From a virus (lineage: Duplodnaviria > Heunggongvirae > Uroviricota > Caudoviricetes), in the IMG/VR virus record IMGVR_UViG_3300045988_115807: a DNA stretch of 46,701 nucleotides; one strand, written 5' to 3'. Of the stretch, positions 3,024 to 40,131 are shown piece by piece. Under the pieces are notes generated by a model. The model did not search any database. It saw nothing but the letters and a program-made list of their open reading frames with translations, and was not told the origin of the DNA. The position numbers and the translations under genes were made by a program. Each line of letters starts with the position of its first letter. Within the stretch, counting starts at the first letter, position 1.

Positions 3024-3415
3024 AACATACTGAACTCCGTGCAGCCGTACTGGATGCACTGGAGAAGCATGACACCGGGGCGACGCTTTTTGATGGTCGC
3101 CCCGCTGTTTTTGATGAGGAAGATTTTCCGGCAATTGCCGTTTATCTCACCGGCGCTGAATACACGGGCGAAGAGCTGGACAGCGATACCTGGCAGGCGG
3201 AGCTGCATATTGAAGTTTTCCTGCCTGCTCAGGTGCCGGATTCAGAGCTGGATGCGTGGATGGAGTCCCGGATTTATCCGGTGATGAGCGATATCCCGGC
3301 ACTGTCAGATTTGATCACCAGTATGGTGGCCAGTGGCTATGACTACCGGCGCGACGATGATGCGGGCCTGTGGAGTTCAGCCGATCTGACGTATGTCATT
3401 ACCTATGAAATGTGA
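3020..3415 (+). CDS. U: tail terminator protein U
   Basis: [33 protein letters not shown]... matches lambda U (131 aa); ATGA overlap with Z. Confidence 0.9.
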
Positions 3416-3422
3416 GGACGAT

Positions 3423-4163
3423 ATGCCTGTACCAAATCCTACAATGCCGGTGAAAGGTGCCGGGACCACACTGTGGGTTTATAAGGGGAACGGTGACCCT
3501 TATGCGAACCCGCTTTCAGACGTTGACTGGTCGCGTCTGGCAAAAGTTAAAGACCTGACGCCCGGCGAACTGACCGCTGAGTCCTATGACGACAGCTATC
3601 TCGATGATGAAGATGCGGACTGGACTGCGACCGGGCAGGGGCAGAAATCAGCCGGAGATACCAGCTTCACGCTGGCGTGGATGCCCGGAGAGCAGGGGCA
3701 GCAGGCGCTGCTGGCGTGGTTTAATGAAGGTGATACCCGTGCCTATAAAATCCGCTTCCCGAACGGCACGGTCGATGTGTTCCGTGGCTGGGTCAGCAGT
3801 ATCGGTAAAGCGGTGACGGCGAAGGAAGTGATCACCCGCACGGTGAAGGTCACCAATGTGGGACGCCCGTCGATGGCTGAAGATCGCAGTACGGTGACGG
3901 CAGCAACCGGCATGACGGTAACGCCAGCCAGTGCTTCCGTAGTGAAAGGGCAGAGCACCACGCTGACCGTGGCATTCCAGCCGGAAGGTGTAACCGACAA
4001 GAGCTTCCGTGCGGTGTCTGCGGATAAAACAAAAGCCACCGTGTCGGTCAGTGGTATGACCATCACCGTGAACGGCGTTGCTGCAGGCAAGGTCAACATT
4101 CCGGTTGTATCCGGTAATGGTGAGTTTGCTGCGGTTGCAGAAATTACCGTCACCGCCAGTTAA
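3423..4163 (+). CDS. V: major tail tube protein V
   Basis: [22 protein letters not shown]... matches lambda V (246 aa); internal start of ORF 3393-4163. Confidence 0.95.
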
Positions 4164-19376: not shown

Positions 19377-20542
19377 TATTCGTTCTCCCAGCGAGGTTTT
19401 ATTAGATCATCAAAAATTTCTCGGCAAACAGGGTCCCATATAGAAACAGCATTTCTCCATGCATTCAATGTTGAACGTTGGTTTGCTGCTTGTTCAAATA
19501 CTGTTCTCATTTTTATCTGGCCTTTACCTACTTCATCGGTAACGCGTACAACCTGACGTAATACCATTGATCCCCATGTATTTCTTATTTGTTCTTCCAT
19601 CCATCGTGATTGATTCCCTGTAGTGAGACTATATTTAGTCAGAAGTAAGCGAACGGTTGGCTCAAATCCACCTAGGTCAACGCTTTCCAATAGATCGAGA
19701 AGCATTGTGAAAAACTGTAGAACAGAAGCGTAATCAAATAATTCTGCAGGTGTAGCAACAACAATAACGTCAGCGGCACAAACAACGTTAATGGTTCCTG
19801 TACCGAGGTTCGGAGCACTATCTATAACGATAACATCGTAGTTATCCCAAACTGATTCAATAGCTGCGCGCAGCATAAGGTGTGGAGGATGAGGCAATTT
19901 ACCCTGAGCATGATATTGCATGAGATCTGTTTCTATACGATGTAAAGCTAGGCAGCTAGGGATAATGTCTAGCCCAGGCCAACATGTTGGCTTTATAGCA
20001 TATTCAGCGTTATCGCGTTCTCCTAAGTAAAATGGCAGTAAAGTATCCTCGGCATGGATATGTAAATCAGGAACATAACCGTGATACATAGAGGCCGTGC
20101 CTTGAGGATCGTTACCTTCAACCAAAAGAACACGATGACCTTGTAATGCTAACCATTGAGCTTGATGTACCGCAGACGATGTTTTATAAACGCCGCCTTT
20201 GTGTGACATAACGGCAAGCACAACAGGGTTTTTATCTTGTGGTCGTTGGTTTGGGTTGCCAAAAACTGCTCGCATACTGTTGATTTGATCTATGGTATAA
20301 CCAGCACGACGTTCAATTCTTCCTCTCATTTCAAAGTCAGGTGCAGGTAAACGCCCGCTCTTCTCAGCATCTCTAATTGCTTGAGGAGTTACACCAATTA
20401 AATCTGCTACTTCAGTTATACCCCATCGGCGGGTGATACGCCGAGCTTCAGGACTATCATCACCGAATTGAGCGATAGCAATTGCTTGGGTCATTTCTTG
20501 ACCTCTCGTAACACAATCTTGCAATAACTTTTTCAAAGACAT
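19376..20542 (-). CDS. sopA: partition ATPase SopA (ParA, Walker-type)
   Basis: ...AIAIAQFGDDSPEARRITRRW...HKGGVYKTS...LLVEGNDPQGTASMYHGYVPDLHIHAEDTLLPFYLGE...IDSAPNLG... near-colinear with F SopA from memory. Confidence 0.95.
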   Translation of the reverse strand: MSLKKLLQDCVTRGQEMTQAIAIAQFGDDSPEARRITRRWGITEVADLIGVTPQAIRDAEKSGRLPAPDFEMRGRIERRAGYTIDQINSMRAVFGNPNQRPQDKNPVVLAVMSHKGGVYKTSSAVHQAQWLALQGHRVLLVEGNDPQGTASMYHGYVPDLHIHAEDTLLPFYLGERDNAEYAIKPTCWPGLDIIPSCLALHRIETDLMQYHAQGKLPHPPHLMLRAAIESVWDNYDVIVIDSAPNLGTGTINVVCAADVIVVATPAELFDYASVLQFFTMLLDLLESVDLGGFEPTVRLLLTKYSLTTGNQSRWMEEQIRNTWGSMVLRQVVRVTDEVGKGQIKMRTVFEQAANQRSTLNAWRNAVSIWDPVCREIFDDLIKPRWENE

Positions 20543-20650
20543 ACTGTCATCTCCAGCTTGTAACTTTGCTTAATAATTAAATCTTTGCTTATTTCTAGCA
20601 AATTTGCATGAAAAAGGCAAAGCAAAACGAAAAACGCAAAGTGGAATATT
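20543..20650 (-). promoter_or_regulatory. sopAB promoter/operator region with CTTTGC / GCAAAG repeats
   Basis: Sense strand upstream of sopA contains ACTTTGCG, TTTTGCTTTGCC and inverted GCAAAG copies, resembling the SopA-binding CTTTGC repeats of the F sopAB promoter. Confidence 0.45.
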
Positions 20651-20825
20651 TGAGCTAAATCATCTTTTGTTCCCCTCCCGAAATGCATAAAACGAACAAC
20701 GATATAATCATAACTAATTGATATTTATTATCTTTTTTTAAAGAAAGGAAATCATGTAAAACTAGGGAAACATGATAAGAATCATCAATGAGATACGTTT
20801 TCTCTATTAGTTCTCCCAATCTTAC

Positions 20826-21160
20826 CAATACAAGAACATAAACAGAGAACATAAAAATAAAGTAATGACACAAACACAATAAAGAACATAAATAAAGAAT
20901 TAGAACCAATGCTAAATAAAGCAGTACACAAAATGAGAACATTACACCAAATGAGAACATTAATCAAGAACATAACGAAACATAATTCCCCATTATACGC
21001 GCGTATAATGGGGAATTATGTGCTGATTTTCAGAACAAAGTCAAGGAACAAATTTTAACGTTCCGATATTGTGTTTTTATTTATTATCCGTTATTGTGTT
21101 CTGTTAGTTTGTGGCTAAGTTAACGCGTTATTAGTTATCTTATTCTCAAATTGTGTTACG
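20826..21160. repeat. AT-rich tos-like region: AGAACA(T) direct repeats left of, and inverted TGTTCT/TTGTGTT repeats right of, the telomere palindrome
   Basis: CAAGAACATA, GAGAACATA, AAGAACATAAAT, GAGAACATTA (x2), CAAGAACATAACG on the left; CAGAACAAAG, TATTGTGTT (x2), TGTGTTCTG on the right. Confidence 0.6.
20980..21021. other. telRL-like telomere resolution site (42-bp perfect palindrome, telO core)
   Basis: ACATAATTCCCCATTATACGCGCGTATAATGGGGAATTATGT is perfectly self-complementary; centre between 21000 and 21001; central CCATTATACGCGCGTATAATGG matches my recollection of the N15 telO core; 171 bp upstream of telN. Confidence 0.85.
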
Positions 21161-21191
21161 ATAATCCGAGCGGATAATCAGGAGAGGAAAG

Positions 21192-23093
21192 ATGAGCAAA
21201 GTAAAAATCGGTGAATTAATAAACTCACTTGTTAGCGATGTTGAGTCAATAGATAACTCTGACCGTCCTCAAGGGGAGAAAACAAAAAAAATAAAGGCTG
21301 TTGCATTAAAATTTAAAAATGCATTATTTAATGACAAGCGAAAGTTTAGGGGGAAAGGATTAGAAAAAAGAATTACAGCCAACACATTCAATGCCTATAT
21401 GAGCAGGGCCAGAAAACGGTTTGATGATAAACTTCATCATAGCTTTGAAAAAAATATACATCGCCTATCTGAAAAGTATCCTTTATATAATGAGGAGCTA
21501 TTGTCATGGCTTTCTCTACCTGCTGCCGATATTCGCCAGAGAATGTCAGCTTTACAGGCAAAATTAAAATTAATTCTCCCTCTATCAGAAGATTTATCTA
21601 ATATCAGAATTGGCGATAACAAAAGTCATAATAAGTTATTGAAATTATCAAATAAATATAAAGAGTGGCAATTCGCCATTTCTGATTTAACTAGCGATAA
21701 CTGGAAAGATAAGCGCGATTATTTATATAAATTACTACAGCAAGGATCTGCCTTACTTGAGGAGTTGAATCAGCTAAAAGTTAACCATGAGATTCTCTAT
21801 CATCTTCAACTAAGCCCTGCCGAACGTGCATCTATCCAGCAACGATGGGCGGACGTTCTGCACAATAAGAAACGTAACGTGGTGGTCATTGATTACCCTA
21901 AATATATGCAAGCTATTTACGATATTATAAATAGCCCTGCTACATTAAATAATCTAAACACTCGTTCAGGTATGGCTCCTTTGGCATTTGCACTTGCTGC
22001 ATTGTCAGGAAGACGAATGATTGAGATTATGTATCAAGGTACATTTACTGTTTCTGGTAAGTATACCGTTGATTTTTTAGGCCAAGCTAAAAAAAGAACT
22101 TCTGATAATATAACCAGAAAAATATATACATTATGCGAAGCAAAAACATTTGTTTATTTAATAAATGTACTTCGCTCATGCCCAGCAGCATCTGATTTTG
22201 ATGATGTCGTTAAAGGTTATGGAGATAACGACACACGCTCTGAAAACGGACGTATTAATGCCATATTAGCAAAGGCTTTTAACCCGTGGGTTAAATCATT
22301 TTTTAAAGATGACCGCCGTGTTTATAAAGATAGTCGTGCTATTTATGCCCGTATTGCGTATGAAATGTTTTTCCGCGTAGATCCTCGTTGGAAAAACGTA
22401 GATGAAGATGTTTTCTTTATGGAAATTTTAGGCCATGACGATGAAAACACTCAATTACACTATAAGCAATTCAAGCTGGCCAACTTCTCAAAGACATGGA
22501 GGCCAAATACTGGAAACGAAAATACCAGGCTGGAAGCATTGCAGCAGCTTGATGACGAAATGCCTGGATTCGCCAGAGGAGATGCCGGGGTTCGTCTGCA
22601 TAACACAGTTAAGCAGCTGGTAGAGCAGGACCCCTCTATAAAAATCACGAACAGCACTCTAAGAGCGTTCAAATTTAGCCCAACAATGATTAGTCGATAC
22701 CTGGAATTTGCTGCTGATGCTCTGGGGCAATTTGTTGGCGAAAACGGACAATGGCAACTGAAAATAGATACTCCAGAAATCGTTATGCCTGACGAAGAAG
22801 AACTGGAAGCAATACCTGAACTGGCGGATGAATTATCAGAGGATGACGATCTGGATGACGACGAAATTGAGATAGAGGAAGAGGAAGAGGAAGAGGAAGA
22901 TAGCGTAGAAGAACAGCAACCGCCTGCACCTTCTTCGCCTGTATCTAAGCCGGTATTTAAGCCGGTGAGAAATATTGGTGATGGCTCATACGTTGTTGAG
23001 TTTCATTATAATGGCCAGAATTATGCGTGGTCCGGCAGTGCAAACAGCCCCATGTCAGCAATGCAGTTAGCATGGCTGACATATTTCGGTTAA
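21192..23093 (+). CDS. telN: protelomerase TelN (telomere resolvase)
   Basis: 633 aa; MSKVKIGELINSLVSDVESIDNSDRPQGEKTKKIKA...RSGMAPLAFALAALSGRRMIEIM...HDDENTQLHYKQFKLANF... matches N15 TelN from memory; acidic Glu/Asp-rich C-terminal stretch. Confidence 0.95.
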   Translation: MSKVKIGELINSLVSDVESIDNSDRPQGEKTKKIKAVALKFKNALFNDKRKFRGKGLEKRITANTFNAYMSRARKRFDDKLHHSFEKNIHRLSEKYPLYNEELLSWLSLPAADIRQRMSALQAKLKLILPLSEDLSNIRIGDNKSHNKLLKLSNKYKEWQFAISDLTSDNWKDKRDYLYKLLQQGSALLEELNQLKVNHEILYHLQLSPAERASIQQRWADVLHNKKRNVVVIDYPKYMQAIYDIINSPATLNNLNTRSGMAPLAFALAALSGRRMIEIMYQGTFTVSGKYTVDFLGQAKKRTSDNITRKIYTLCEAKTFVYLINVLRSCPAASDFDDVVKGYGDNDTRSENGRINAILAKAFNPWVKSFFKDDRRVYKDSRAIYARIAYEMFFRVDPRWKNVDEDVFFMEILGHDDENTQLHYKQFKLANFSKTWRPNTGNENTRLEALQQLDDEMPGFARGDAGVRLHNTVKQLVEQDPSIKITNSTLRAFKFSPTMISRYLEFAADALGQFVGENGQWQLKIDTPEIVMPDEEELEAIPELADELSEDDDLDDDEIEIEEEEEEEEDSVEEQQPPAPSSPVSKPVFKPVRNIGDGSYVVEFHYNGQNYAWSGSANSPMSAMQLAWLTYFG

Positions 23094-24438: not shown

Positions 24439-24700
24439 GGTATGCACTCCGTTTTATTGGTCGTGCTACCACCAGAGTTGCGAATCTCTTTATTGGTGGT
24501 AGCCCAGGCGGGGTTCGCAATACCGGTAAACGAAGAAACCGGCCCGACCGAAGTCAGCCCCACCTGAGCCACCATAATTCGGATATGCGCAGGTCTATAC
24601 ACACAAAAAAACACGCTGGCGCGTGTTGTGCGCTTCGTTTTGCCAGGATTGCGAAGTCCCGACTGCGGGATTTACCGCAGCGAGGTGACTTTACCTCCAA
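24439..24700 (-). ncRNA. structured leader of the antirepressor operon; candidate C4/CA-type processed regulatory RNA
   Basis: Minus strand has TTGACG-18nt-TAAAGT promoter-like hexamers near 24700-24670, a hairpin plus U7 (ACACGCGCCAGCGTGTTTTTTT) near 24630-24606, and a 10-bp stem GCTACCACCA / TGGTGGTAGC just upstream of the small ORF's RBS. Confidence 0.3.
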
Positions 24701-24737
24701 AACGACGCACACGTCAATAATTTGCAAAGACATTTTA

Positions 24738-24769
24738 CCCCGTGACCAGTCACGGGGACAGGTGTTTTT
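24738..24769. terminator. hairpin between the antirepressor leader and the lipoprotein gene
   Basis: CCCCGTGACCAGTCACGGGG perfect 20-bp palindrome, followed on the plus strand by ACAGGTGTTTTTA. Confidence 0.35.
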
Positions 24770-24818
24770 ATAGTTTGCTTGAACAAACGATCAGAACATG
24801 AACAATGTTATTGTTCCG

Positions 24819-25631
24819 TTATAAGAAAGCCTCACGCGAACGGAACACCCACTCTAGCTGTACTGGATAAATTTCTCCCGTTTTAATATTTATTAGGCGC
24901 GCGGCTAATAACTCACCCATAAAAACCTGAGTTTTATGGCTCATATCTGACGGGTTAAAAATAGTAGGTGATGTTATATCAATATGATTACTGCTTAACC
25001 CATTTATCTTTGCTAAATATTCAATTCTAAGGTCTTTTACATTAACATCTTTTGGTATTTGTCCTTTTATATCAATATCTGCCCATATTGTTTCAGGGTT
25101 CCCTTCATTTATTTGTGTACTACCAAAGATAATTTCGGCACCTAAAGTATTTAACACTTCTACATCAGCAGATATTCCAAAAGCATTAGCACCAACATAG
25201 CTTCCATGCTTTGTTATTTCAGAGGAATCGACATGAAAACCATACCATCCAGACATATCTCGAGATGTTATCACGCTATCACTACCGCTATTCTCAACAA
25301 AATCACGGTTAAGATATGTTCCTGAGTATGTGATACTTCTAGGGATAGACAAACCTTGAGATGTTAAAACGTTGTTGTATGGCGCGTATGTTAATGAGTG
25401 AACGACATATCCACGCCATGAACCATCATCTATCTTTGATGCAATAATTCTATTAAATTCCTTACCTGTGAGTATTTTGCTGCTAAAATCACCAACAGAG
25501 TTGATAGGTACTCTTTTTTCTTTTTCGAATTTATACTCAACGTCCGTTGATGCCTTATTATCATATTGATAAGTGCATCCAGATAATAACAAGATAGAGA
25601 GTAATAAAGCTGTTGTTTTTTTGTTACGCAT
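24819..25631 (-). CDS. hypothetical lipoprotein (270 aa), AT-rich moron
   Basis: MRNKKTTALLLSILLLSGCTYQ... has a signal peptide with lipobox LSGC; the gene is visibly more AT-rich than its flanks, with an AT-rich upstream region and a hairpin downstream. Confidence 0.8.
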   Translation of the reverse strand: MRNKKTTALLLSILLLSGCTYQYDNKASTDVEYKFEKEKRVPINSVGDFSSKILTGKEFNRIIASKIDDGSWRGYVVHSLTYAPYNNVLTSQGLSIPRSITYSGTYLNRDFVENSGSDSVITSRDMSGWYGFHVDSSEITKHGSYVGANAFGISADVEVLNTLGAEIIFGSTQINEGNPETIWADIDIKGQIPKDVNVKDLRIEYLAKINGLSSNHIDITSPTIFNPSDMSHKTQVFMGELLAARLINIKTGEIYPVQLEWVFRSREAFL

Positions 25632-25720
25632 AATATTAACTTAACCTATTTGATTAATAATATGTTATTCCATTAAATAAAATATGCCGAGAACGGTTTA
25701 ACTTGAACAGTCATCACTAT

Positions 25721-26116
25721 TCAATCAACTTTTTTAGCATCAGCCATACGCTTCAACCAGTAATCAACAATCGGCTGCTCATCCACAGAATGTTTACCTG
25801 GTATAACTCGCCAGCTATCTTGCGAAAATCTGCCGTACTTACGCGGGAATAGGCCTTTCTTTATCTCCCGCCATGTACTAGGAAAACCATCCACAAAAGT
25901 ACCAATTAACAGGAGAGGGACAAAAATCAGAGCTACAAACCATCGTGCAAGAAAGTGTTCAACAACAACATTTTCACCGTTGTAGTAATACGCATACGCA
26001 TCCAATATGCGAATTTTCCTTACCTTAAAAATAGCCTTATGCTGAGAACGACTTAACTTGATACGAATGTATCCCTTATCCAAAGGGGATTCGTATTTGT
26101 ATGATTGAACAGCCAT
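25721..26116 (-). CDS. hypothetical membrane protein (132 aa)
   Basis: ORF with one hydrophobic segment (WFVALIFVPLLLIGTFV); start chosen at MAVQSYKY, 2 nt after the upstream stop. Confidence 0.55.
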   Translation of the reverse strand: MAVQSYKYESPLDKGYIRIKLSRSQHKAIFKVRKIRILDAYAYYYNGENVVVEHFLARWFVALIFVPLLLIGTFVDGFPSTWREIKKGLFPRKYGRFSQDSWRVIPGKHSVDEQPIVDYWLKRMADAKKVD

Positions 26117-26118
26117 TT

Positions 26119-26445
26119 TTAACCCCACTCACCATCAGCAAACAAAGCGTTATACTCTGACAATGGTAGACGGTTGCCCTCGATGTAGAGATTCAGTTCA
26201 TACTTCGTCTCCGGGTTTTCCTTGTCGGCTCGTTCCCAACGCTCAGCAGCCTTACGCGCCAATAATTCCACTGCTTTCAGATAATCCTCCGTACGGAACC
26301 AGCCAAAGATAAGGCCACGATCTGTTACAGCCCAGGCGACCTTTTTTTCTTCCTCCTGGATAGCCCTAATGCGTCGTTCGCATTCATCCCGGCAGAACTG
26401 CAGCTGACGGTAATCAAGTTTGTCCAAAAATGCAGTAGTAGACAT
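26119..26445 (-). CDS. hypothetical protein (108 aa)
   Basis: ORF tightly packed between the repA-distal small ORF and the membrane protein gene. Confidence 0.55.
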   Translation of the reverse strand: MSTTAFLDKLDYRQLQFCRDECERRIRAIQEEEKKVAWAVTDRGLIFGWFRTEDYLKAVELLARKAAERWERADKENPETKYELNLYIEGNRLPLSEYNALFADGEWG

Positions 26446-26449
26446 ATTT

Positions 26450-26641
26450 TTACTCCCCGTTCACCGAAAATTCACGATAGAAACGTTTCCACATACGATA
26501 AGTCTGCGCAAATTGTTCACCACGAAACATCGCCTTCCTGGCCTTCATGTTTTCCTTGTGAGACTTTCGGTCTATGAACCAAAACCATTGATGGAACACA
26601 CAAAGCAAGAGACACAAAGATAATATCCAATCATTACCCAT
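26450..26641 (-). CDS. small hydrophobic protein (63 aa) overlapping the repA stop
   Basis: Internal ATG of ORF 26450-26758 (MGNDWILSLCLLLCVFHQWFWF...), overlapping the repA 3' end by 8 nt. Confidence 0.35.
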   Translation of the reverse strand: MGNDWILSLCLLLCVFHQWFWFIDRKSHKENMKARKAMFRGEQFAQTYRMWKRFYREFSVNGE

Positions 26642-29600
26642 AGAAAGCGCCCTGCTCTTCGTAGCTGCATGAGCTATTCCCCGTAATGTATTCACGTAAC
26701 CGCCGCAGCTCATTGCTGGAAAGGTGATCCATGAACTCTGTGAGGTACAGGGATGCAAACGTCATAGCTATGCTGGCTGATGACCATGATGACATAGTGG
26801 CCAACTCCTCACTGGAAAGCGCACTCATCGCCCAGGACTCAGGTACAGCCACTGGCAACACGGCCAAAGCCTCAGAAATTACTGAATGAGGGGCGTTTTG
26901 AACCTGCTCGTTTGTGGATCGCGTTTTATCATCCATATATATATTGAGATCCAAATCGCGATCCATTTCGATGGCTGTCTTCTCGGCTTTACGCGTTTTT
27001 AGGGTTAGGCCATCTTTCTGACGCTGAACAAGAATATCCAGCATAAATGCCGCTGATTCAGGCTCAACAAAACGCAAGGTTGGACGCTTATCGCCGTCTC
27101 TGCCGCGACGTTTACCTGTTTTAAGGCCAAGAGAGTCGCAAATGTTTTTAAACAACGCTTCCGGCACTTTAGGCTTCCCTTTTGGCGTCATAAAACCACC
27201 AATGTGCAGAACGTTATTCAACAGGTCACGGCGTTCGGCTGTCATGAGGTTATCTCGAGCGAATTTGAGACGCTCCTGAGTCGCCTCGCCGGTCATAGTC
27301 TCAGGGTTGATACCGCAGTCGATAAAGTACTGCCGGAGAGTTGCTGATTTAAGCGCATAGAAACCGCGCGCCCCGACTTCAACAGTAGGAGTAGCTTTTA
27401 CCTTGTGATCGATTATTCCAGGGAATTTAGTTTTAAAGACATCATCAGCCTGCTCGCGAGTCATCGCGGTCACTACAAAATATTGCCACTGTCCCGCCTG
27501 ACGGTATGTGTAGGTAAAATTGATGGCTGCTTCTTCCCGGTCGTAACGACGAGCTGTTACCTCATCTAAAAGCATTGTTTCATAGCGGCGAACTTTGTCT
27601 CGAGCACCATCGAAATAGAATTTCAGCGTGCCTTCTTCAACCGGTAGTTTCAGTTCGTTTTCAATATCCCAGCGGACAAGTTTTGCCTGTTCTTCAAGCG
27701 TCAGCGCGCGTTTTTTTAGCAGTTCTTCACGCTCTGATTCTTGTGGTGTTTCTGTATTGAGGTGCAGATCCAGTGTCTGTTCCCACACAATATCCCGCGC
27801 TTCTTTACGCAGATCTTTACCGATATCATTCGCAGCATAATCGGTGGCCAGCGGTGATACCTTATAACCGTCGCTGTGCATGATGCAGATCATGTTGCTG
27901 GCGTAGTCGTTACGCGCAGTCGCTTCAATTGCGGCTGCTTTAATTTTCATCCTGGTAAAGTCGGTATTGGCCACCCCCATTGATATACGGTCGCCATCGA
28001 AAACGACATCCGTAAGTTCACCGTTCATACCTGCGGTAGCAAGCAATGCCTGGGCGAATGCTCGTTCTATTTTTTGCGGGTCAGTTTCACGTTTTGCACG
28101 AGCTTTATCAAAGCCGATAATAAATTCTTTTGCTGTACGGTCGCGGCGTAGCATTTGCACTGCATCACTGGGTACAACTTCACCACAGAACATGCCGAAA
28201 TGACGGTCAAAATGTTTTTGCTCAATCGACACGCCGGATGAAATAGACGGGCTATAAATCAGGCCGTCGTATTTTTTGACCATCTTTTTCGGTTGATTGG
28301 TAAATGCTTCAACTTCTGGCTCTGGTTTGTTTTTCTGGTTTACACACAGAAATTTCTTACCAGGAAAATGCATTCTCAGGGTGGCTGTCACATCTTCTGC
28401 AAAGGTGGAGCTGTCGGTGGCCAACATGATTTTTTCGCCATCCGATACAGCTTTCACCACCTCGGTCATGATGCGATCTTTTTCTGTATAAAAAACCCGG
28501 ATTGGCTCACCTGTTTCGCGGTTGCGAACATCAACAGGTAATTCAATTACGTGGATCTGCAGCCATGCCGGTAAACCTAGTTCTTCACGGCGTTTCATAG
28601 CCAGTTCAGCCAGGTCAACCAGCAGATCGTTCGCATCAGCATCCACCATGATTGGGTGTTGTTCCGTTCTGGCCAGCGCGTCAATTAGCGTATTGAATAC
28701 AGCCACCGGGTTTTCCATAGCCCGACCGGAAAGAACGGCACGTAGCCCTTGTGTGGCCTCGTCAAAGCCAAAATAGTCGTGCTGGCGCATCAACGGTTGC
28801 CAGCAGTTTTTAACAATCGAGTTTATGCAGATGGTCAGTTTACTGGCGTATGGAGCCATTTCCTGATAGCCAGGGTCCTGATAGTGCAGGATATCGGTTT
28901 TTACACCTTTTCCTTCTGTCATCATTTCCCACAGGCCACCAATAAGGGAAACACGGTGAGCAACAGAGATACCACGTTCTGAGCTATGCATTAAAGGTCG
29001 TAACAATCCAGTAGATTTGCCGGAACCCATACCAGCACGAACGATGACTATCCCCTGTAGTGATTGCACATACTTCAGGACGTCATCGGTCATTACCGAA
29101 GTTTCAAAACGCTTATAGGTGATATGTTGAGGACGTTTATTGGGATCAGTTATGCGTTCGCTGAATGAGCGCGGAGCCTGGGCAATACGGCACTTTTTAT
29201 TCAGGCGACGGGCAATGTGGTCTTTTACCGTAGCGCGATAGATATTTTCCAGCCCCATTTCACGCAGAACGATGCAGAACATGTTAAATAAGTCTGACGG
29301 ACTGTTAGGAACCGGACAGGTTAGCATGCCAATATCCACCGCTCTCAGCAGCTCTTTGGCAAAAGTACGACGGTTATCCCGCTTAATTGTCTTCAGGCGG
29401 TTGAGCGTCAGAGATAGCAAATCAGTGCCGGTTTTCAGGCGGTTTGCAGTTGCAAACAGTTGACGTGCTGTTTCACGAAGTCCACGCAGTTTGTGCAGGT
29501 CGTTGAAGTCACTGCACTCCATTTGCGGATCGTCTTCAAAAGTTGGATAGACGCAGCGGACATCGTTGAATTTCGATAAGATTTCATAGCCAGTCCGCAG

Positions 29601-30629
29601 GCCGGTATTCCCTTTTCCTTCTGTGGCTGATTTCCGGTCATTATCCAGTGCGCAGGTGATTTTTGCCGCCGGGTACATGTTTACCAGTTGTTCCACAACA
29701 TGAACCATGTTATTAGCGGATACAGCGACAACCACAGCGTCAAAGCGTTTATCTTTTTTCGTGGCAAGCCAGATGGATGCACCAGTAGCAAAACCTTCTG
29801 TAACAGCGATGTTTTGCGCCCCTTTTAGCTCACCGATAACAAAGCAGGCACCGACGAAATCGCCGCTGGTTACGGCGCTGGTCTGGTATTTTCCACCTTG
29901 TTTGTCGATTCGCTGCCAACCCACAATACGACCATCGTAACGACCGTCCAGGTGAGCCAGAGGGATAGCCATATACGTGGTTGGCCCCCTGCTCCATTTT
30001 GCGCTGTCGTGACTGGTCACGCGACGCACATCACACGAATTAAAAACGTCACGAATACCTTTTTTAATCGCATATGGCCATGAGCCGTCTTCTGCAGGAG
30101 CATGTTCCCACGCGCTGTGGAATGCCAGCCATCCCAGCAAACGTTCATGGTCCATTTGGTTGTTTTTCAGGTCATTAATTCGTTTTTGTTCTTCACGGCG
30201 ACGACGTGCTTCGGCCTGACGTTCTATTCTTGCCCGTTCTTCTTCCGGTTGTGCGACCACGGTCGCATTATTCCGTTGTTGCTCACGGCGATATTCAGAA
30301 AACAGGAAGGAGAAACCGCTCCATGAGCCAGCATCGCTGCCTTTATGGACGAAGTTAATGAACGGGTAATCAATCCCTTTGCTGTGTTCCAGCCGGGAGT
30401 AAATTTCTACGCGTCCTTTGAGGCTCTTTTCGAGAGCTTCTGGAGATGTTTTATTGTATGAAGAGTAACGCTCAACACCCCCGCGAGGGTTGAGTTGGAT
30501 GTTGTCGGAACAGGCAGACCAGTTGATACCAGCCATCTGTGCCAGCTCGGTTAGTTCATCCCGTGCTGCTTCAATTAGCGAGAACGGATCGCTGCCAAAG
30601 CGATCCGCATAGAAATCGTTTAATGTCAT
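26634..30629 (-). CDS. repA: replication protein RepA (primase-helicase, N15 RepA-like)
   Basis: 1331-aa ORF; contains Walker-A-like GMGSGKST; size and position next to cB match N15 repA, whose 3' part is reported to contain the replication origin. Confidence 0.9.
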   Translation of the reverse strand: MTLNDFYADRFGSDPFSLIEAARDELTELAQMAGINWSACSDNIQLNPRGGVERYSSYNKTSPEALEKSLKGRVEIYSRLEHSKGIDYPFINFVHKGSDAGSWSGFSFLFSEYRREQQRNNATVVAQPEEERARIERQAEARRRREEQKRINDLKNNQMDHERLLGWLAFHSAWEHAPAEDGSWPYAIKKGIRDVFNSCDVRRVTSHDSAKWSRGPTTYMAIPLAHLDGRYDGRIVGWQRIDKQGGKYQTSAVTSGDFVGACFVIGELKGAQNIAVTEGFATGASIWLATKKDKRFDAVVVAVSANNMVHVVEQLVNMYPAAKITCALDNDRKSATEGKGNTGLRTGYEILSKFNDVRCVYPTFEDDPQMECSDFNDLHKLRGLRETARQLFATANRLKTGTDLLSLTLNRLKTIKRDNRRTFAKELLRAVDIGMLTCPVPNSPSDLFNMFCIVLREMGLENIYRATVKDHIARRLNKKCRIAQAPRSFSERITDPNKRPQHITYKRFETSVMTDDVLKYVQSLQGIVIVRAGMGSGKSTGLLRPLMHSSERGISVAHRVSLIGGLWEMMTEGKGVKTDILHYQDPGYQEMAPYASKLTICINSIVKNCWQPLMRQHDYFGFDEATQGLRAVLSGRAMENPVAVFNTLIDALARTEQHPIMVDADANDLLVDLAELAMKRREELGLPAWLQIHVIELPVDVRNRETGEPIRVFYTEKDRIMTEVVKAVSDGEKIMLATDSSTFAEDVTATLRMHFPGKKFLCVNQKNKPEPEVEAFTNQPKKMVKKYDGLIYSPSISSGVSIEQKHFDRHFGMFCGEVVPSDAVQMLRRDRTAKEFIIGFDKARAKRETDPQKIERAFAQALLATAGMNGELTDVVFDGDRISMGVANTDFTRMKIKAAAIEATARNDYASNMICIMHSDGYKVSPLATDYAANDIGKDLRKEARDIVWEQTLDLHLNTETPQESEREELLKKRALTLEEQAKLVRWDIENELKLPVEEGTLKFYFDGARDKVRRYETMLLDEVTARRYDREEAAINFTYTYRQAGQWQYFVVTAMTREQADDVFKTKFPGIIDHKVKATPTVEVGARGFYALKSATLRQYFIDCGINPETMTGEATQERLKFARDNLMTAERRDLLNNVLHIGGFMTPKGKPKVPEALFKNICDSLGLKTGKRRGRDGDKRPTLRFVEPESAAFMLDILVQRQKDGLTLKTRKAEKTAIEMDRDLDLNIYMDDKTRSTNEQVQNAPHSVISEALAVLPVAVPESWAMSALSSEELATMSSWSSASIAMTFASLYLTEFMDHLSSNELRRLREYITGNSSCSYEEQGAFYG
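30250..30266. repeat. sopC-like centromere palindrome (copy within the repA 5' region, 17/18 match)
   Basis: GTGCGACCACGGTCGCA(T); same dyad as the other four copies. Confidence 0.55.
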
Positions 30630-39170: not shown

Positions 39171-39667
39171 TGCAGTCATCATTACGCAAAGCTGTCGCAA
39201 CTGCTATTGGTGGCGGGGCTATTGCCATAGCATCTGTGCTCATCTCTGGTCCGAGCGGCAACGATGGTCTGGAAGGTGTGAGACATAACCCCTACAAAGA
39301 CATCGTTGGTGTATGGACTGTATGTTACGGGCATACAGGAAAAGACATTATGCTCGGTAAAACGTATACCGAAGCAGAATGCAAAGCTCTCCTGAATAAA
39401 GACCTTGCTACTGTCGCCAGACAAATTAACCCGTACATCAAAGTCGATATACCGGAAACAACGCGTGGTGCTCTTTACTCGTTCGTTTACAACGTGGGTG
39501 CAGGCAATTTCAGAACATCGACACTTCTTCGCAAAATCAACCAGGGCGATATCAAAGGTGCATGTGATCAACTACGTCGCTGGACATATGCTGGCGGCAA
39601 GCAATGGAAAGGGCTGATGACTCGCCGTGAGATTGAGCGTGAAGTCTGTTTGTGGGGGCAGCAATGA
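39167..39667 (+). CDS. SAR endolysin (T4-type lysozyme, GH24)
   Basis: N-terminal signal-anchor-release-like segment [20 protein letters not shown] followed by lysozyme-like domain (…VCYGHTG…); start overlaps the holin stop. Confidence 0.85.
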
Positions 39668-40131
39668 GCAGAGTAACCGCAATTATTTCCGCACTGGTTA
39701 TCTGCATCATCGTCTGCCTGTCGTGGGCTGTTAATCATTACCGTGATAACGCCATCGCCTACAAAGAACAGCGTGATAAAAAAGTCAGTGAGCTGAAGCA
39801 GGCGACCGCCACCATCGCTGACATGCAGCAGCGTCAGCGTGATGTTGCTGCGCTCGATGCAAAATACACGAAGGAGTTGGCTGATGCGAAAGCTGAAAAT
39901 GATGCTCTTCGGCGCAAGCTTGATAATGGTGGTCGGGTGCTCGTCAAAGGAAAATGCTCTGTGCCATCCTCAGCCGAAACCTCCAGCGCCTCCGGCATGG
40001 GCAATGATGCCACCGTCGAACTCTCTCCAGTTGCTGGACGAAACGTTCTCGGTATCCGGGACGGAATCATCAGAGACCAGACAGCACTGAGAACGCTTCA
40101 GGAATACATCAAGACGCAATGCCCGAATTAA
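39664..40131 (+). CDS. i-spanin Rz
   Basis: [24 protein letters not shown]... N-terminal TM anchor followed by coiled-coil; position after endolysin. Confidence 0.8.
39884..40090 (+). CDS. o-spanin Rz1 (lipoprotein embedded in the +1 frame of Rz)
   Basis: [22 protein letters not shown]... lipobox VVGC followed by Pro-rich [16 protein letters not shown], like lambda Rz1. Confidence 0.7.

Follow-up and report, generated by a model that had tools for sequence, protein, structure and literature searches.

What does a lone, AT-rich lipoprotein gene do for the phage-plasmid that carries it? The question is raised by a 270-aa open reading frame (ORF) on the minus strand of the IMG/VR record IMGVR_UViG_3300045988_115807, a stretch of 46,701 nucleotides that we analysed at its full length (the window). 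A preliminary description, made from the sequence, had called this ORF a stand-alone lipoprotein gene, likely a horizontally acquired moron with an AT-rich upstream region of its own and a hairpin downstream, and had named superinfection exclusion and host-surface modification as common tasks of such genes. We found that the gene is a horizontally exchanged single-gene cassette, placed by its surroundings in a known cargo slot of N15-like elements, and we tentatively propose that its product protects the carrier cell at the envelope.

The lipoprotein gene

The ORF (24819-25631, minus strand) begins with an ATG at 25631 and ends with a TAA at 24821-24819; it is in the ORF list and is supported by homologs of 53-99% identity. 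Its residues 1-19 (MRNKKTTALLLSILLLSGC; 25575-25631, minus strand) form a signal peptide in which a positively charged n-region and a hydrophobic h-region precede a canonical lipobox (…LLLSGC; pattern [LVI][ASTVI][GAS]C) with Cys19 as the predicted site of lipidation, and the mature protein has ~251 aa (~28 kDa). The lipoprotein ORF was borne out in this form, and the end first given for it, 25720, takes in the 89-bp spacer ahead of the start codon. In the Lol system the residue at position +2 governs the sorting of lipoproteins, Asp at +2 being the exception to outer-membrane delivery. Since the +2 residue here is Thr and no family member has Asp at this position, the protein is predicted to be sorted to the outer membrane, facing the periplasm.

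The GC content of the cassette that holds the gene (24797-25705) is 34.3%, compared with 50.2% in the left flank, 44.0% in the right flank and 49.7% in the window overall. At third codon positions the lipoprotein ORF has 25.8% GC (GC3), against 47.7-51.3% in repA, the 108-aa gene, the Bro-N gene and the 77-aa gene, so that the AT-richness seen earlier by eye holds when computed. Only 1.8% of the 909-bp segments of the window are as AT-rich as the cassette, and all the others lie within 20251-21271.

An open frame of 270 codons is expected by chance at this composition with a probability of ~4e-10. In comparison with homologs of 53-62% identity, synonymous sites are saturated (proportion of synonymous differences, pS, 0.76-0.84), and the proportion of nonsynonymous differences (pN) is 0.24-0.32. 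The low pN against saturated pS points to purifying selection, and the ORF is a real, selectively maintained gene.

Exchange of the cassette and its cargo slot

Breakpoints in blastn alignments with relatives delimit a swapped cassette of 909 bp (24797-25705), which contains only the lipoprotein ORF with ~75 bp upstream and ~20 bp downstream. Homology to PhiR46_1 (L002) ends at 24796 and resumes at 25706, homology to YDC107_1 ends at 24804 and resumes at 25715, and homology to N15, phiKO2 and NAR688 breaks at 24804-24813. The lipoprotein gene is found in 3 of the 17 E. coli genomes having the flanks. Presence or absence with sharp boundaries and a composition unlike that of the surrounding genome are the marks of a moron, and both were found here; together with the occupancy and the relatives on unrelated mobile elements described below, they support the earlier proposal of a stand-alone, horizontally acquired gene. 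The lipoprotein gene is a horizontally exchanged single-gene cassette. The closest full-length matches of the cassette region are the E. coli plasmids CP014491 (100%) and pPEC1013-3 (99.3%).

The slot holds different cargo in different relatives. It is empty in N15, where gene 33 abuts the anchor, i.e., the stretch of hairpin, isrK-like and C4 RNAs described below. The product of the PhiR46_1 slot gene (3086-3373, minus strand) has 95 aa, with four cysteines, and starts with a Sec signal peptide; its label 'Spackle exclusion protein' was rejected as unsupported, having no sequence match to solved structures and PHROGs of unknown function. YDC107_1 (CP025712.1), which aligns with the cassette flanks only (17% of the query, 95.7% identity), has in the slot another gene, for a 74-aa protein.

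In the Klebsiella phage NAR688 (L032, 3855-5560) the slot encodes two proteins, one of 377 aa that matches the colicin pore-forming domain PF01024 above its cut-off and one of 181 aa whose match to the colicin immunity family PF03857 falls just below it. The NAR688 cassette adjoins a 65%-identical homolog of the 108-aa gene of the window, and its immunity gene is co-oriented with repA, like the lipoprotein gene, with the toxin gene on the opposite strand. It is the telocin TelA/immunity ImmA cassette of Byers et al. 2025, who described a telocin/immunity cassette between RepA and protelomerase and detected TelA, ImmA and 'gp35' among only nine phage proteins in lysogen proteomics (PMC12042878). 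In phiKO2 numbering gp35 is RepA, and we infer that the NAR688 label follows that numbering. With the same anchor and the same flanking homolog as in NAR688, the lipoprotein gene is assigned to the telocin cargo slot.

Protein family

A word-indexed search with the query detected five clusters only (53-99% identity, ~268-276 aa), sharing 96 invariant columns with it, and a word-indexed search with the family profile returned the close members and one Xanthomonas protein only. The exhaustive profile search of 1.84 billion representative proteins gave 20 at E <= 1e-3. The 13 retrieved family proteins are 243-303 aa long, and all except the Xanthomonas protein start with a lipobox-type signal. 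In an alignment of 18 sequences the lipobox is present in 17 (14 by pattern, three more with V-G-C by reading) and Asp at +2 in none. The named members are from E. coli, Salmonella, Serratia, Tatumella, Providencia, Klebsiella, Aeromonas and Xanthomonas, and E. albertii, E. fergusonii and Enterobacter were added by tblastn. With 14 of 72,556 plasmid records the gene is rare, and family members are annotated 'hypothetical' throughout, save one UniRef entry, 'Lipoprotein'.

No homology had been recognised in the preliminary description, and this was essentially right. The query has a weak match to phrog_13753 (E 1.3e-3), in which its C-terminal half (residues 135-259) aligns collinearly with positions 129-256 of the 263-position profile; this family of unknown function is matched by 15 of the 18 members (best E 3.7e-10) and is the sole library family matched. 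Scans of the query and all 18 members with Pfam, NCBIfam and PADLOC gave no meaningful family: Pfam returned nothing for the query at E up to 0.1, and the sole lipoprotein-type match in the family-wide Pfam scan was one generic lipid-attachment-site match. A PDB sequence search with the family profile gave signal-peptide-level noise only, and a literature search by protein accessions and PHROG identifier retrieved no paper on the family. The PKD and Ig-repeat giants P0013 and P0024 were ruled out as homologs, the resemblance being that of a weak beta-sandwich motif.

Two 96%-identical alleles, P0004 in L010 and the Enterobacter allele in L029, differ by ~13 non-synonymous and 3 synonymous changes (ratio of non-synonymous to synonymous rates, dN/dS, ~1.3), which hints at recent diversifying change, at counts too small to call.

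Genomic contexts of the relatives

In every retrieved context the family is confined to mobile elements and is always accessory. In nine contexts (the window and eight others) the ORF lies 7-16 GC points below its flanks. The same slot is occupied in Enterobacter p53EVA-1 and in metagenomic contigs with the order RepA, 82 aa, 118 aa, 116 aa, lipoprotein, icd, and the repA string precedes the family member in three telomere-phage backbones. In the backbone L018 the family member is preceded, at a distance of 8 bp, by a second, unrelated lipoprotein gene (3153-3569, plus strand; 138 aa, …IALAAC…, phrog_2320), which shows that lipoprotein genes can stand in tandem in the slot.

Small plasmids form a second setting. 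In ~4 kb plasmids (3.7-4.4 kb) of Salmonella, Klebsiella and Enterobacter with relaxase and NikA-like mobilisation genes, the family member directly follows a Rep-like winged-helix gene; a Rep-like gene also accompanies it on ~2.4 kb contigs, and a 5.5 kb Aeromonas contig of a Rop-type plasmid carries it too. In four complete E. coli ColRNAI/Rop plasmids of 2,724 bp, including pRHEcCUB-4, it is, rop aside, the sole ORF above 90 aa. Because the gene is the sole sizeable cargo of such minimal plasmids, it is likely to confer a benefit as a single gene.

Prophages form a third setting. In Xanthomonas hortorum the family member is located 18 bp after a CI/Peptidase_S24 repressor gene and is co-oriented with it, the repressor being divergent from cro, and in siphovirus prophages of Providencia and Tatumella its direct downstream neighbour is the tape-measure gene. 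In Tatumella (L024) a terminator-like site after the family member, between it and the tape-measure gene, was detected by the scan. By eye, a stem with a T-run follows the family member in the Providencia locus; L014, L018, L021 and L025 show such stems. The source isolates come from human blood, sputum and faeces, from wild bird, pig and chicken, and from plant-associated Xanthomonas.

Predicted structure and conserved residues

The AlphaFold2 model built from the 18-sequence alignment is confident (predicted local distance difference test score, pLDDT, 84.7; predicted template-modelling score, pTM, 0.77), compared with an earlier, poor model from 6 close sequences (pLDDT 50). In the model, residues 20-37 form a low-confidence tether of ~18 residues, followed by a mostly beta-strand body, with a long helix (56-69) and short strands and then a C-terminal part of long antiparallel strands. 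Foldseek comparison with PDB and BFVD returned no structural relative (TM-score <= ~0.2), so the protein is predicted to have a fold without a detectable relative in these two collections.

The N-terminal half is highly variable (8-15% identity to distant members), and residues 226-265 are the most conserved (36%). Family-wide invariant residues in the 18-sequence alignment are only Tyr145, Asn149, Ala150 and Gly152; Pro227, Ala243-Ala244 and Leu246 are near-invariant. The alignment shows no conserved acidic, His, Ser or Lys residue of the catalytic kind, which argues for a binding protein rather than an enzyme.

Local organization and expression

On the minus strand the order is repA (26634-30629), the 108-aa gene (26119-26445), the 135-aa gene (25721-26128), the spacer, the lipoprotein gene, an AT-rich hairpin, a GC-rich hairpin, a promoter-like site, the isrK-like and C4 RNAs, icd, the 77-aa gene and Bro-N. 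The repA-side string thus ends with the cassette, just upstream of the hairpin that separates this string from the antirepressor operon. The co-oriented upstream neighbour, the 135-aa gene (phrog_15458), encodes a single hydrophobic stretch that reads as a transmembrane segment, and it is the probable co-transcription partner of the lipoprotein gene. The two do not form a module: the 135-aa gene is kept in the E. coli relatives regardless of cargo and so is backbone in relatives with other cargo, and the upstream partner of the family member on small plasmids is the Rep-like winged-helix protein, not a homolog of the 135-aa product. The 135-aa gene is itself below the backbone GC (40.7%; GC3 37.5%), and no counterpart was seen at this place in N15, phiKO2 and NAR688, so that the variable region may have in it a second accessory gene, an older one.

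The 89 bp that separate the 135-aa gene from the start codon of the lipoprotein gene (25632-25720, minus strand) form an AT-rich spacer, as the preliminary description had it. The consensus scan detected in it no minus-strand sigma-70 site, although a weak or non-canonical promoter could escape such a scan, and this detail of the moron picture was not supported. The Shine-Dalgarno sequence is weak by eye (AGG ~15 nt upstream). The same scan found no promoter upstream of the family member on pRHEcCUB-4 and, in L019, one promoter-like site at chance level.

The claim of a downstream hairpin held in part. A small AT-rich hairpin (GAACAAT-AAC-ATTGTTC; 24800-24816, minus strand), seen in the sequence and in RNA folding, begins 3 nt past the stop, at the cassette/backbone joint; it is weak and is the only hairpin inside the cassette. 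The strong, GC-rich hairpin (CCCCGTGAC..GTCACGGGG; 24738-24757, minus strand) lies beyond the stretch first described. Folding of 24725-24790 gives a free energy (dG) of -20.6 kcal/mol (z -3.9), and the core is kept in L001, L002, L003, L010 and L029, including relatives without the lipoprotein gene, a distribution by which the hairpin is assigned to the backbone, not the cargo.

Outside the cassette, the promoter scan detected a promoter-like site (TTGACG, 18 nt, TAAAGT; 24688-24717, minus strand), which heads the operon of the isrK-like and C4 RNAs, icd and the antirepressor. Rfam identifies here an isrK-like Hfq-binding small RNA (24606-24681, minus strand; 52.8 bits) and a C4 antisense RNA (24492-24579, minus strand; 82 bits); ORFs that cover this RNA stretch, such as a 71-aa coding sequence in YDC107_1 and a 59-aa ORF at 24554-24733, are probably not genes. 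The 77-aa gene of the operon is anti-repressor-like (phrog_10889). At the junction (~24780-24800) most relatives (L002, L003, L010, L029) have two close GATC sites (TGATCA or GATCA, a few bases, TGATCA) ahead of the conserved caagcaaactataaa and the hairpin. The window retains only one of these sites, which may serve in regulation or recombination.

Read-through from the repA-side operon appears more likely than a promoter of its own for the lipoprotein gene. The position at the tail of the repA-side string, the co-oriented placement elsewhere after Rep or cI genes, which stable carriage requires, and the analogy with the NAR688 proteomics suggest expression in carriage. The protein would most probably be produced in the lysogen (plasmid) state, from transcripts that read through from the repA-side unit.

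Other features of the window

From its gene content the window is identified as an N15-like (Ravinvirus) linear phage-plasmid of Escherichia. The features that identify it are RepA of 1,331 aa, protelomerase, sopAB and the telRL palindrome, together with a CB/Cro/Q-type immunity region, lambda-like tail genes, lom and the C4/icd/antirepressor operon. Megablast matches of the window in 5,426 complete E. coli genomes were all to plasmids, with none to chromosomes.

The sole other region as AT-rich as the cassette, 20251-21271, was considered as a second moron and ruled out; it is the telRL site, a backbone function and not cargo. Within it, ahead of the protelomerase gene (21192-23093), lies a perfect 42-bp palindrome (ACATAATTCCCCATTATACGC and GCGTATAATGGGGAATTATGT; 20980-21021) that corresponds to the telRL telomere-resolution core of N15. 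Apart from the cassette product, the window encodes a single convincing lipoprotein, a proline-rich, Rz1-type o-spanin (…IMVVGC…; 39884-40090, plus strand), whose gene lies inside an Rz-like gene (39652-40131, plus strand) of the lysis module.

Proposed function and alternatives

We suggest, with a probability of about 0.4, that the cassette lipoprotein protects the carrier cell at the envelope by blocking an uptake step used by phages and/or bacteriocins. A benefit to the carrier cell at its envelope is suggested because minimal plasmids have the gene as their cargo, a prophage has it after cI, it alternates in the slot with a toxin/immunity pair and a small exported protein, and its product lacks a catalytic signature. 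The lipoprotein would hang in the periplasm from its tether at the outer membrane and attach, on the periplasmic side, to an uptake component of the outer membrane or the periplasm; incoming phages and/or colicin-like bacteriocins would thereby be kept out, on the principle by which T5 Llp, Cor and Rtp45 work. The tasks named in the preliminary description, superinfection exclusion or surface modification, would be consistent with these findings.

Several points weigh against such protection. We found no homology or functional link to any known exclusion protein, no PADLOC match and no detectable homolog in deposited phage genomes (0 of 50,697), and the Xanthomonas member has no lipobox. Llp, Rtp45 and Cor are proteins of ~6-8 kDa encoded beside receptor-binding genes, compared with ~28 kDa and the replication/immunity arm here. 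Klebsiella phages hold bacteriocin/immunity genes in this slot, and bacteriocin genes are classically found on small ColE1-type plasmids; this context suits a bacteriocin-related role no less than phage exclusion, which makes protection from bacteriocins a serious rival. Expression of the gene is deduced from its position, with a negative promoter scan and a weak-looking ribosome-binding site.

One alternative is an orphan immunity or neutralising lipoprotein, carried without its toxin, which would directly bind and inactivate a toxin active in the periplasm instead of closing an uptake route; such a toxin could be an effector of a type VI secretion system or a bacteriocin that targets peptidoglycan or lipid II. 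Occupancy of the telocin/immunity slot in the orientation of the NAR688 immunity gene (PMC12042878), the presence on ColE1/Rop-type mini-plasmids, and the envelope location without catalytic-looking conserved residues all agree with it; nevertheless, no similarity to colicin-immunity or other immunity families was found in Pfam/NCBIfam, and no context examined has a cognate toxin gene nearby. The known immunity proteins for periplasm-acting colicin-like toxins are much smaller and are not known to be outer-membrane lipoproteins. We consider this explanation unlikely, and unlikely as well is some other envelope function of benefit to the element (outer-membrane vesicles, cell wall, partition in carriage, a released toxin or a lysis aid). 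A fold without a relative in PDB/BFVD makes the function unreadable from structure, and the recurrence on minimal replicons could reflect a plasmid benefit, which would leave room for such a role; on the other side, no partner gene is conserved across contexts, the 270 aa are far larger than bacteriocin-release or spanin lipoproteins, and the phage lysis module already has Rz/Rz1. A spanin or lysis role in particular was rejected, the size and location being wrong and Rz/Rz1 being elsewhere in the window.

Quite improbable, in our judgement, is a lysogenic-conversion fitness or virulence factor like lambda Bor, Iss or TraT (serum/complement resistance, adhesion, envelope robustness) with no phage or bacteriocin role. 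It would suit a lipoprotein predicted for the outer membrane and carried by mobile elements from enteric and clinical isolates, in a window that also carries the conversion gene lom, but Pfam scans match no lipoprotein family, including any TraT or Bor/Iss models, the plant-associated Xanthomonas and the wild-bird, pig and chicken hosts do not define a single niche, and nothing points to surface exposure. The last alternative, a chance ORF or decaying remnant in AT-rich junk DNA, could draw on the base composition, the weak-looking ribosome-binding site and the promoter scan; it is effectively refuted by conservation, given the negligible chance of such an open frame, pN far below saturated pS, the 96 invariant columns shared by five clusters and a confident fold obtained from co-variation.

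Envelope protection of the carrier cell is accordingly the explanation that we put forward, and a bolder form of it can be formulated, which we hold to be rather unlikely: the family might be a new, structurally unprecedented class of single-gene envelope shield, a periplasmic protein anchored in the outer membrane that disables a shared import route (e.g., a porin or a TonB/Tol step) and gives resistance to phages and bacteriocins, including rival telocins. Such a shield would explain the alternation with toxin-immunity cassettes, the placement after cI and the ability to sustain 2.7-kb plasmids.

If the lipoprotein is protective, it would represent a new, much larger family of envelope exclusion proteins with a new fold, extending the set of Llp, Cor, Rtp45, TraT and Ltp, and the telocin slot would be a general competition locus holding weapons or shields. 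Single-gene phage/bacteriocin resistance on mobilizable plasmids of 2.7-4 kb in clinical Enterobacterales would, if true, be relevant to phage and bacteriocin therapy. The family is a clean natural example of an accessory gene moving among phages, phage-plasmids and mini-plasmids, a kind of gene flow studied by Pfeifer and Rocha (PMC10879196).

Comparison with known systems

Llp (T5), Rtp45 (Rtp) and Cor (N15, phi80, T1) are, like the cassette product, stand-alone phage lipoproteins predicted or shown to reside in the inner leaflet of the outer membrane, and T5 Llp also protects against colicin M. The cassette lipoprotein differs from all three in having no sequence or fold similarity to them, in its 270 aa and in its place ~7 kb from the tail-fibre genes; the query matched neither the Cor PHROG nor any structure in PDB/BFVD. 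Llp and Rtp45 bind the periplasmic face of the phage receptors FhuA and LptDE, altering their surface loops (PMC9586334, PMC12685063). They are the best-understood precedent for the mechanism suggested here, and the cassette product may work like this group without belonging to it.

Lambdoid morons (lambda bor and lom; HK97-type morons as Hendrix and colleagues use the term) are likewise extra genes of deviant composition, present in some close relatives between backbone genes. The Tatumella relative is moron-like in this sense, with a terminator-like site following the family member in the middle of a tail operon. In the window, by contrast, the gene has no detected promoter of its own and the hairpin belongs to the backbone, so that it behaves like an operon-tail cassette rather than a promoter-gene-terminator unit.

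TraT, the surface-exclusion lipoprotein of F-like plasmids, has ~240-270 aa. The query has no Pfam match, scans with Pfam/NCBIfam detected no match to Bor/Iss, TraT or colicin-immunity family profiles, and the family is found on non-conjugative or mobilizable mini-plasmids and phages, in contrast to the transfer operons of TraT. The likeness lies in the comparable size and in TraT being encoded on a plasmid, anchored in the outer membrane as a lipoprotein and protective of its carrier cell at the envelope.

A parallel in genome organization is offered by the telocin-immunity cassettes (TelA/ImmA of NAR688). Those are two-gene pairs of a toxin and an inner-membrane immunity protein that match colicin Pfam families, whereas the window has a single lipoprotein gene, no toxin and no match to a colicin, pyocin or immunity family. 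Both are swappable cargo in the same slot, bounded by the hairpin/isrK/C4 anchor on one side and by the genes downstream of repA on the other; relatives with an empty (Tel0-like) slot, N15 among them, exist, and the telocin cargo products were detected in the lysogen (PMC12042878).

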